IMG/VR virus record: IMGVR_UViG_3300013101_003214
From: a virus
Length of the DNA stretch: 13,150 nt
Strand: one strand, 5' to 3'
The notes beneath the pieces are model-generated. The model had not been told where the DNA came from, made no database searches, and was given only the letters and a program-made list of their open reading frames with translations. This document shows positions 95 to 879 of the stretch, in pieces. Each line of letters starts with the position of its first letter. The first letter of the stretch is position 1. The translations under genes and the position numbers were made by a program.

Positions 95-604
95 TCAACC
101 ATCTTCCCCGGTCTTGTCGGTGTTCTCAGTACCTTCGGCATCTTTGACTCCCATTGCGAGCAGCTGGCAGAACTCAGTATACGCCGGGAGACGCATCAAA
201 TGACCTCGGAGCTCAACGCTTCCAGGTATCAGCGAGGAGGCCATGGCGCCATCTTCCCAGAGCTTGCGGAGGCGGATCAGCCGCCCCTCCTTGGCGTGGT
301 GCTGGAAGTACGCCAGAGCTCGGAAGAACCCGTGCATGTAGCCGCGGTAGTAGACCCTGCTGAACCAATCGCTTATGCGCTGGTCCGGGTCGGCGGTGAG
401 TGCCTCTCGAGCCTCGATGCCTGAGTTGGCAGCCGCTTCGGCCGCTTCGGCCATGGCTGCCTTCATCTTCTCAGGCAGGTTGACCTTCTTGCCATCGAGC
501 CAAACCGTGCCACAGCGCCTACAGGCTTCAGGGTAGTGGTGATCGCCCTTCCGGGGAGTGCCAGGCTCAAACCGATAGAGCTCGCCGCCGCACTCGCAGG
601 TCAT
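95..604 (-). CDS. hypothetical protein (170 aa) with N-terminal CxC...CxxC zinc ribbon; real start is an internal ATG of the 95..835 ORF
   Basis: First 77 codons of ORF 95..835 are low-complexity and overlap a convincing RHH gene in another frame. ATG at 604..602 overlaps the RHH stop (ATGA at 601-604), consistent with translational coupling. Motif MTCECGGELYRFEPG...EACRRCG. Confidence 0.5.
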   Translation of the reverse strand: MTCECGGELYRFEPGTPRKGDHHYPEACRRCGTVWLDGKKVNLPEKMKAAMAEAAEAAANSGIEAREALTADPDQRISDWFSRVYYRGYMHGFFRALAYFQHHAKEGRLIRLRKLWEDGAMASSLIPGSVELRGHLMRLPAYTEFCQLLAMGVKDAEGTENTDKTGEDG

Positions 605-819
605 GGCATTTTGGGGTCGGCCAGCTGGTCGGCTCGATGAGAAGCGATCTTCCGCTCCGACACCTCCAAGGCAGCCTGGAGTGCCTTCATGAAGTAGTCC
701 TTCAGGGTCTTCCCCTCGAAGGCGCAGGTCATCTTGAGCCGTCGATGGAACTCCGGGGGGACGAAGAAGTGAAGGCTCTTGTCCTTCTGCTCCCCGTTGC
801 CCATGTGATCCTTTGCCAT
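601..819 (-). CDS. ribbon-helix-helix (CopG/Arc/MetJ-like) DNA-binding protein, 72 aa
   Basis: KSLHFFVPPEFHRRLKMTCAFEGKTLKDYFMKALQAAL matches the RHH beta-strand plus two helices. RBS AAAGGG lies 7 nt upstream of ATG 819. Stop overlaps next gene start (ATGA). Confidence 0.65.
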   Translation of the reverse strand: MAKDHMGNGEQKDKSLHFFVPPEFHRRLKMTCAFEGKTLKDYFMKALQAALEVSERKIASHRADQLADPKMP

Positions 820-850
820 GTTGTTGCCCTTTCATCGGATGGTGAAAGGT

Positions 851-879
851 ACATTAGCACCAAGTGTTGCCGGTATCAA
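851..879 (-). promoter_or_regulatory. sigma70-like promoter for the RHH/zinc-ribbon gene pair: -35 TTGATA (879..874), 17-nt spacer, -10 TAATGT (856..851)
   Basis: Read on the minus strand in the 62-nt gap between the tmk stop (882) and the RHH start (819). Hexamers and spacing are near consensus. Confidence 0.5.

Follow-up and report, generated by a model that had tools for sequence, protein, structure and literature searches.

The window, that is, the whole stretch of DNA analysed here (IMG/VR virus record IMGVR_UViG_3300013101_003214, an entire metagenomic contig of 13,150 bp), carries on its minus strand a gene for a 72-aa ribbon-helix-helix (RHH) protein, directly followed by an overlapping gene for a zinc-ribbon protein, which we call the partner. 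Our analysis suggests that these genes are the promoter-proximal part of an Arc/omega-like autoregulated early or middle operon of a huge-phage lineage, a reading to which we give an even chance. The evidence comes from the proteins themselves, from the region upstream of the RHH gene, and from comparison with related loci, which are denoted by L numbers. The features of the unit are as follows.

1..141 (read 141..1), minus strand: third gene, for a small Cys-rich protein, MPKVLRTPTRPGKMVEHICKDRRGK...CTMCNTQIVYV, truncated at the contig end
95..604 (read 604..95), minus strand: partner gene, 169 residues plus stop, its start overlapping the RHH stop
601..819 (read 819..601), minus strand: RHH gene, 72 aa, from an open reading frame (ORF) and profile matches
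828..849 (arms 828-834 and 843-849), no strand: perfect inverted repeat CCTTTCA-N8-TGAAAGG with 7-nt arms, between the −10 box and the start codon
851..859 (hexamer 856..851, TG 859..858), minus strand: extended −10-like box TGcTAATGT, 17 nt after the −35 box, hexamer 3/6
874..879, minus strand: −35-like box TTGATA, 5/6 consensus, with TTGAnn equally spaced in the window, L003, L001 and L005

The RHH gene and its reading frame

The 72-aa RHH gene of the preliminary description was recovered at 819..601 of the minus strand, with profile matches and a family of its own, and its stop shares the bases ATGA at 604..601 with the partner start, as had been described. By these matches the protein is assigned to the MetJ/Arc (ribbon-helix-helix) superfamily. 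A disordered N-terminus (about residues 1–15) is followed by the strand KSLHFFVP, two helices reaching to about residue 55 (PEFHRRLKMTCAFEG and TLKDYFMKALQAALE) and a short tail, and this order matches the superfamily fold. The Pfam families ParD, HicB and RHH_10 all match residues ~13–63, each below its own cut-off. For ParD the match has an E of 2e-4 and 21.9 bits, under the 27.3-bit cut-off, and covers profile positions 8–50 of 80. The family phrog_6024 matches at 3e-6. The best matches of the family profile among solved structures were ParG (E 0.0023), ParD and the Sulfolobus-virus RHH protein SSV 56B. A tblastn search with the RHH protein gave weak Aeromonas phage matches only, among hypothetical genes, and was uninformative.

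In an alignment of ten RHH homologues, the N-terminal tail varies, the strand-helix-helix core is conserved and has five invariant residues (H17, F24, H25, K29 and Y42), and the end is unconserved. The RHH part of ParD was matched by nine of the ten, and one member matches Pfam ParG. The tail after helix 2 is 8–25 residues long in these homologues. A C-terminal toxin-neutralising region was sought, and none was conserved among the ten.

The window and L003 are 90% identical, and the ratio of synonymous to non-synonymous codon changes between them is 10:8 in the RHH frame but 3:16 and 1:18 in the two alternative frames, which indicates that the RHH frame is the coding frame. This bears on a rival explanation, in which the true gene would be a long ORF (835..95, 246 aa) or an RHH-partner frameshift fusion, and the RHH gene would be an artefact or partial. 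The partner frame (−1) is indeed open across the whole RHH gene in six of seven lineages: the window, L003, L001 (4145-4846), L002 (2248-2904), L005 (frame 2) and L009. Furthermore, in L001, L002 and L005 the 30 codons that precede the conserved first Cys of the partner contain neither ATG, GTG nor TTG, and the Joint Genome Institute (JGI) annotation called the long ORF in L001 (P0003). About 55 nt are common to the RHH tail and the zinc ribbon in L001, L002 and L005, and the half-ribbon there is conserved. However, the −1 frame is the one with the 3:16 ratio, its peptide is of low complexity and poorly conserved, and L010 has a stop in it. The start lies near the first Cys in most of the 74 members of the partner family. 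The chance of an open −1 frame by synonymous resampling is 0.01–0.37 per locus, and such a frame is also open in 24.5% of the 72-codon windows taken from the genes of this contig. No slippery heptamer for an RHH-partner frameshift was found when looked for by eye. We therefore rejected the long ORF and the fusion on the substitution pattern, the L010 stop and the chance rate, consider this rival very improbable, and treat the open −1 frame as a by-product of GC content. A terminator-like hairpin at 787..771, inside the RHH gene, was likewise set aside as a chance occurrence, since 11 such hairpins were found against 10.7 expected.

The partner family and its pairing with the RHH gene

The preliminary description had given the partner as a 170-aa protein beginning with a CxC...CxxC zinc ribbon. 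The ribbon was confirmed, while the length is 169 residues plus the stop. The N-terminus reads MTCECGG...CRRCG, and the four ligands of the C4 ribbon would be C3, C5, C28 and C31. All four, together with G92 and E144, are invariant in 50 aligned members, and nearly invariant residues are P25, G38, F93, R95, G107, R108, R111, W116 and L148. The core motif is YFxxVYxxGYLDGFFRALAxFxHxxKEGRLxRLRxLW. There is no catalytic-looking set among the invariant residues; we take them to be structural, not catalytic, and the protein to be non-enzymatic. Rpb9/TFIIS zinc ribbons match positions 2–42 of the family profile with an E of 1.7e-4. Profile and model together assign residues 1–41 to a TFIIS/Rpb9-like C4 zinc ribbon with predicted metal binding.

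An AlphaFold2 model built from 50 sequences reached a predicted local distance difference test (pLDDT) score of 79.7, while an earlier run with seven sequences (pLDDT 54) was too poor to use. In the model, the zinc ribbon (residues 1–41, strands 8–11, 26–28, 34–36 and 39–41) is followed by a long helical hairpin (45–71 and 73–103), by a unit of helix, beta-hairpin and helix (106–150, pLDDT above 93) and by a disordered tail.

Searches of the partner against Pfam, PHROGs, NCBIfam, PADLOC and PDB sequences gave nothing or zinc-ribbon noise only, and Foldseek gave no significant fold match. The statement that the partner has no recognisable family thus holds for curated libraries, but a family can be defined. 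A word-indexed search found seven relatives, and a full hidden Markov model (HMM) search of 1.84 billion representatives found 74 clusters, 69 of them with E below 1e-10. Most members have 150–200 aa, and in them only a few residues at most separate the start from the first Cys. On these searches, the partner defines an unannotated family of about 74 clusters, without a fold relative beyond the zinc ribbon. A role as a secondary-channel factor of the DksA/TraR or GreA type, which combine a zinc finger with a coiled-coil hairpin, was rejected, as there is no profile-level homology.

With RHH genes detected by an HMM built in this analysis, the partner proved to be immediately preceded by a homologous RHH gene in 11 of the 13 partner lineages with fetched loci: the window, L001–L004, L005 (with L006 and L007), L009, L010, L017, L011, and L012 (with L013 and L014). 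The homologues thus do co-occur, a point on which the preliminary description had let its proposal depend. The 4-nt overlap is present in the window, L003, L004, L009 and L010; the genes are separated by 0–3 nt in L011, L012 and L017, and overlap for longer in L001, L002 and L005. In two lineages, L015/L016 and L024, the partner has no RHH gene in any frame. These partners are located at 4153-4635 of L015 and at about 1-456 of the L024 minus strand, and L015 is also without a small third gene of the MPKVLRT type.

The partner is followed in turn by the third gene, whose translation from 141 to 1 is MPKVLRTPTRPGKMVEHICKDRRGKAVRRKAPSNTLCTMCNTQIVYV and which overlaps the partner 3′ end by 47 nt. 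Full-length homologues of 55–62 aa occupy the same overlapping place in six relatives (L001, L002, L003, L009, L010 and L017), so the unit is not a two-gene cassette. The third gene is not homologous between clades.

The order tmk-RHH-partner, with the thymidylate kinase gene tmk upstream, is kept in L001, L002, L003, L009, L010 and L017. In the closer clade the full order is (DUF5131)-tmk-RHH-partner-small Cys-rich protein-larger CxxC protein. Three members of the partner family are located on IMG/VR viral contigs of 49, 92 and 100 kb, with neighbours that include a DNA methylase, DUF5131, tmk, an M15 peptidase, a second RHH protein, an AAA_24 ATPase, a PD-(D/E)XK nuclease and RecT. By these neighbours, the pair sits in a block for replication, recombination and nucleotide metabolism. 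The genes upstream of tmk differ in relatives: a 262-aa protein is encoded there in L001, and DUF5131 with an acidic protein in L009 and L010. The second RHH-like gene (...KTVSLPAELV...), which is small and unrelated to the first, is found at 10454-10636 of L009 and 6616-6801 of L017, about 2 kb downstream of the pair and directly behind the M15 peptidase gene. The most distant members, L011 and L012 (25–29% identity), have an Amidase_2 endolysin, not tmk, upstream and unrelated helical proteins downstream, but the RHH-partner core is kept.

Among 185,579 prokaryotic species genomes (one per species), one true partner member was found: L024, on a 2.4-kb contig of a Salinibacterium metagenome-assembled genome. 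These scans are bounded by their search patterns: the first gave no match, and a hand-built degenerate pattern gave seven, of which this was the only true one. Within that scope, the family appears almost only on phage-like contigs and nearly absent from cellular species genomes.

Promoter-like boxes and the candidate operator

The preliminary description had proposed that a near-consensus, dedicated sigma70 promoter drives the RHH gene. Near-consensus is an overstatement, for the two boxes agree with the consensus at 8 of 12 positions, plus the TG. We scored the 80 nt upstream of each RHH start by the matches to the −35 box, the −10 box and the TG. The window scores 9 (5 + 3 + TG), a value reached by 5.3% of random 80-nt windows drawn from the loci that were scored. 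A consensus promoter scan did not list the TTGATA/TAATGT pair, and promoter-like sites in the window were no commoner than in shuffled sequences.

The comparison of loci is more telling. All nine related loci score 8–10, and seven of them at least 9. In the window, L003, L001 and L005, the sequences before the RHH gene align over TTGAnn, 17 nt, TGnTAnnnT, a TTTCA-rich element and a Shine-Dalgarno sequence. L009, L010, L011 and L012 have an exact TTGACA, 17–18 nt and a −10-like box preceded by TGn. This conservation is far beyond chance even with only four independent lineages counted. Because the TTGAnn-17/18-TGn-box arrangement is placed alike in all nine loci, a sigma70-type promoter is probably real, by comparison and not by its own quality. 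It need not be the sole source of transcription, because only 2 nt and no terminator separate the end of tmk (882) from the −35 box. Of the dedicated promoter, therefore, the placement stands and the exclusiveness does not.

In L009 (~7770-7812), L010 (~7745-7785) and L017 (~4740-4780) a −10-like box TGnTAnnCA ends 4–6 nt before the RHH ATG, and no Shine-Dalgarno sequence is visible before the gene; the RHH mRNA may be leaderless in these three loci. In L001 (~4070-4150), L005 (~440-525) and L002 (~2050-2100), a mini-ORF of about 27 codons lies between tmk and the RHH promoter. Its peptide is hydrophobic and transmembrane-like, and its TGA stop is part of the −35 TTGA. The mini-ORF is absent from the window and L003.

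The inverted repeat at 828-849, which the preliminary description had overlooked together with the third gene, spans the transcription start, expected near 844, and the Shine-Dalgarno sequence GAAAGGG. Autoregulating RHH repressors usually bind over the transcription start or Shine-Dalgarno region, and we propose this repeat as a candidate RHH operator. Its arms are identical in L003; L005 has the variant TTTCATC-N4-GATGAAA, and in L001 the repeat is degenerate. By contrast, the 15-bp palindrome at 2495-2509 (AACGATATTATCGTT), suggested earlier as an RHH site, is not a plausible operator because it is located within the tag-coding region of the transfer-messenger RNA (tmRNA), a location that had also been missed.

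Comparison with known systems and the phage context

Taken together, a host sigma70-type promoter (879..851) would start transcription of the unit. Its first product would be a small DNA-binding protein of the Arc/omega/ParG-like RHH kind, which most likely binds the inverted repeat 849..828 over the transcription start and the ribosome-binding site. Accumulated RHH protein would then shut its own operon down, and this would cap the dose of the translationally coupled genes, which encode the 169-aa partner and one or more further small Cys-rich proteins. The partner may be a non-enzymatic zinc-ribbon/coiled-coil effector; our guess is that its most likely target is nucleic acid or a protein complex of the host or the phage. 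The gene structure with its overlap, the assignments of the RHH protein and the zinc ribbon, the conservation of the pairing and of the promoter-like boxes, and the phage context are shown by the data, whereas we infer the operator binding, the autorepression, the timing and the binding target of the partner.

The closest known layout is that of the immI arc-ant operon of P22, where the small RHH repressor Arc is co-transcribed with the larger effector Ant. Both units are phage-borne, with the RHH gene first, the larger gene second, one sigma70-type promoter, and a palindromic site overlapping the promoter or transcription start; negative feedback on dose would be a further likeness. They differ in several respects. 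The partner and Ant are unrelated proteins, and the pair is not adjoined by a gene for a second, Mnt-like repressor. Moreover, the RHH protein has 72 aa and a disordered N-tail (Arc has 53 aa), and the candidate operator has a 7-N8-7 geometry, unlike the 21-bp Arc operator. The RHH protein is also similar to omega (pSM19035) and ParG (TP228) in having a flexible N-terminal tail before the RHH fold and no toxin-binding extension. Omega regulates the operon that contains its own gene and is not itself an antitoxin. Unlike in those systems, no ParF ATPase, no epsilon or zeta homologues and no heptad repeat arrays were seen, and the ParG likeness is weak (E 0.002) and at fold level only. RHH antitoxins (ParD, RelB, CcdA and FitA) share the gene order, the 4-nt overlap and the sub-threshold ParD match, but their C-terminal toxin-binding region of 30–50 residues is missing here, the partner has no ParE, RelE, CcdB or PIN fold and stands alone in two lineages, and the distribution is syntenic and almost entirely on phage-like contigs. 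As for the TFIIS/Rpb9 C4 ribbons, the partner matches them over residues 2–42 with its four invariant Cys, while its other 125 residues have no relative and its first knuckle in the window is CxC, not CxxC.

Several observations weigh against an Arc/omega-like operon. The −10 hexamer of the window is weak (3/6), and read-through from tmk could also express the genes of the pair. The inverted repeat is kept only among close relatives, and its arm centres are 15 bp apart, unlike the one-turn spacing of classic RHH tetramer operators. Fold searches with the partner returned only generic helical hairpins, none significant. Finally, a two-gene core that is kept while its flanks change fits a toxin-antitoxin pair equally.

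A toxin-antitoxin module, whether two- or three-part, is accordingly the first alternative to weigh. In the two-part form, the RHH protein would be both antitoxin and autorepressor, and the zinc-ribbon protein a new toxin. In the three-part form, of the omega-epsilon-zeta or paaR-paaA-parE style, the RHH protein would be the regulator only, and the partner and third protein would be toxin and antitoxin. The RHH-first layout with ATGA coupling, the similarity to the RHH part of the ParD antitoxin in nine of ten members (below threshold), the kept core between changing flanks and the third overlapping small gene all speak for such a module, and a partner without a known fold leaves room for a new toxin. 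However, an unconserved tail of 8–25 residues and a ParD match that stops at position 50 of 80 indicate no neutralising domain. The partner occurs without RHH in L015/L016 and L024, and neither protein matched any PADLOC defence model, which also counts against a toxin. Toxin-antitoxin cassettes are usually inherited patchily, whereas this family is syntenic in a phage replication block and essentially absent from cellular genomes. The invariant residues of the partner are not of a catalytic type, the operon continues into further overlapping small genes, and the three-part form is weakened by the lack of homology of the third gene between clades. Our literature search on toxin-antitoxin systems of RHH and zinc-ribbon proteins in phages found nothing relevant. 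The two forms, taken together, are unlikely in our judgement. The preliminary description had left the choice between a toxin-antitoxin-like and a repressor module. Its layout and pairing stand, and the comparison favours the repressor module over the toxin-antitoxin one, because the RHH protein has no neutralising tail, the partner is alone in two lineages, PADLOC gave no match, the synteny is that of phages, and at least three genes overlap.

Still less probable, in our view, is a two-protein DNA-binding or segregation complex, in which the RHH protein would be a site-specific binder like ParG or omega and the partner a structural adaptor, and the pair would act on the phage genome (its organisation, replication origin or partition), not on transcription. 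ParG is the nearest solved RHH protein and one member matches its Pfam family; the partner has a long helical hairpin and is taken to be non-enzymatic; and the pair is within a replication/recombination block. But no ParA/ParF-type ATPase adjoins the pair in any locus, the weak ParG similarity is restricted to the generic RHH fold, and no array of repeated binding sites was seen near the genes. The partner might also be a DNA-recognition subunit like a small terminase, in which the N-terminus would bind DNA, the helical hairpin would form the oligomerisation core and a beta element would follow at the C-terminus. The order of its secondary structures is like that of small terminases, and several of these were among the non-significant Foldseek matches (E 0.4–2). 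Yet all matches had E above 0.1, those to terminases had match probabilities of up to 0.23, the neighbours are nucleotide-metabolism, recombination and lysis genes and not packaging or structural ones, and no large terminase was found among the larger ORFs checked in the 10–16 kb flanks of L009, L010 and L017. Given non-significant matches and the wrong genomic context, we rejected the small terminase, which has hardly any probability left.

A phage origin of the window is indicated by its other genes, which include tmk, an HNH endonuclease, GroES, tmRNA, a vault-like protein and 27 tRNA genes. The main features outside the unit are the following.

882..1514, minus strand: thymidylate kinase gene tmk (Pfam PF02223, E 2.4e-17), the neighbour upstream of RHH
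1733-2260, minus strand: HNH endonuclease with C-terminal helix-turn-helix, between tmRNA and tmk
2274-2605, minus strand: complete tmRNA (ARAGORN and Rfam RF00023, 115 bits), tag peptide ANDNIVAAPLAVAA
4636-7293, minus strand: vault-like protein, 885 aa, with major-vault-protein shoulder and vault-repeat domains (PF11978, 4.6e-21)

Across more than 90% of its length, the vault-like protein shares 36–38% identity with proteins from uncultured 462–735 kb phages (LR756500/1/3), and on this resemblance the window is assigned to a huge-phage-like genome, of which it is a fragment. A megablast search with the window and a tblastn search with the partner against 50,697 phage records found no match. 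The HNH endonuclease gene looks like a homing-endonuclease insertion. The tRNA genes form an array at 8147-13077 on the plus strand, in which most amino acids are represented. Two protein genes are located within it, one at 8890-9306 (plus strand, phrog_5018) and one for a VanY/PG_binding peptidase on the opposite strand (11292-11966, minus). The vault-like or SPFH-like protein in huge phages may merit separate study.

An RHH-led autoregulated phage operon is of a known kind, while the partner family is undescribed. It is possible, although we think it unlikely, that the partner founds a new family acting directly on a host machine (for example RNA polymerase, the translation or the replication apparatus) as a take-over factor or a growth-arresting toxin, gated by the RHH protein. 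If this were true, the module would represent a new class of host-shutoff or toxin modules under RHH control in huge phages, with a new effector fold; if not, it would be an ordinary Arc-like autoregulated phage operon. Huge phages carry hundreds of unassigned genes. For this module we now have a conserved two-gene core, conserved promoter-like boxes, a candidate operator, a family boundary of about 74 clusters with invariant residues, and a structural model fit for use. All its parts are amenable to synthesis and to tests in E. coli, which makes the module a tractable entry to early gene control in uncultivated huge phages.

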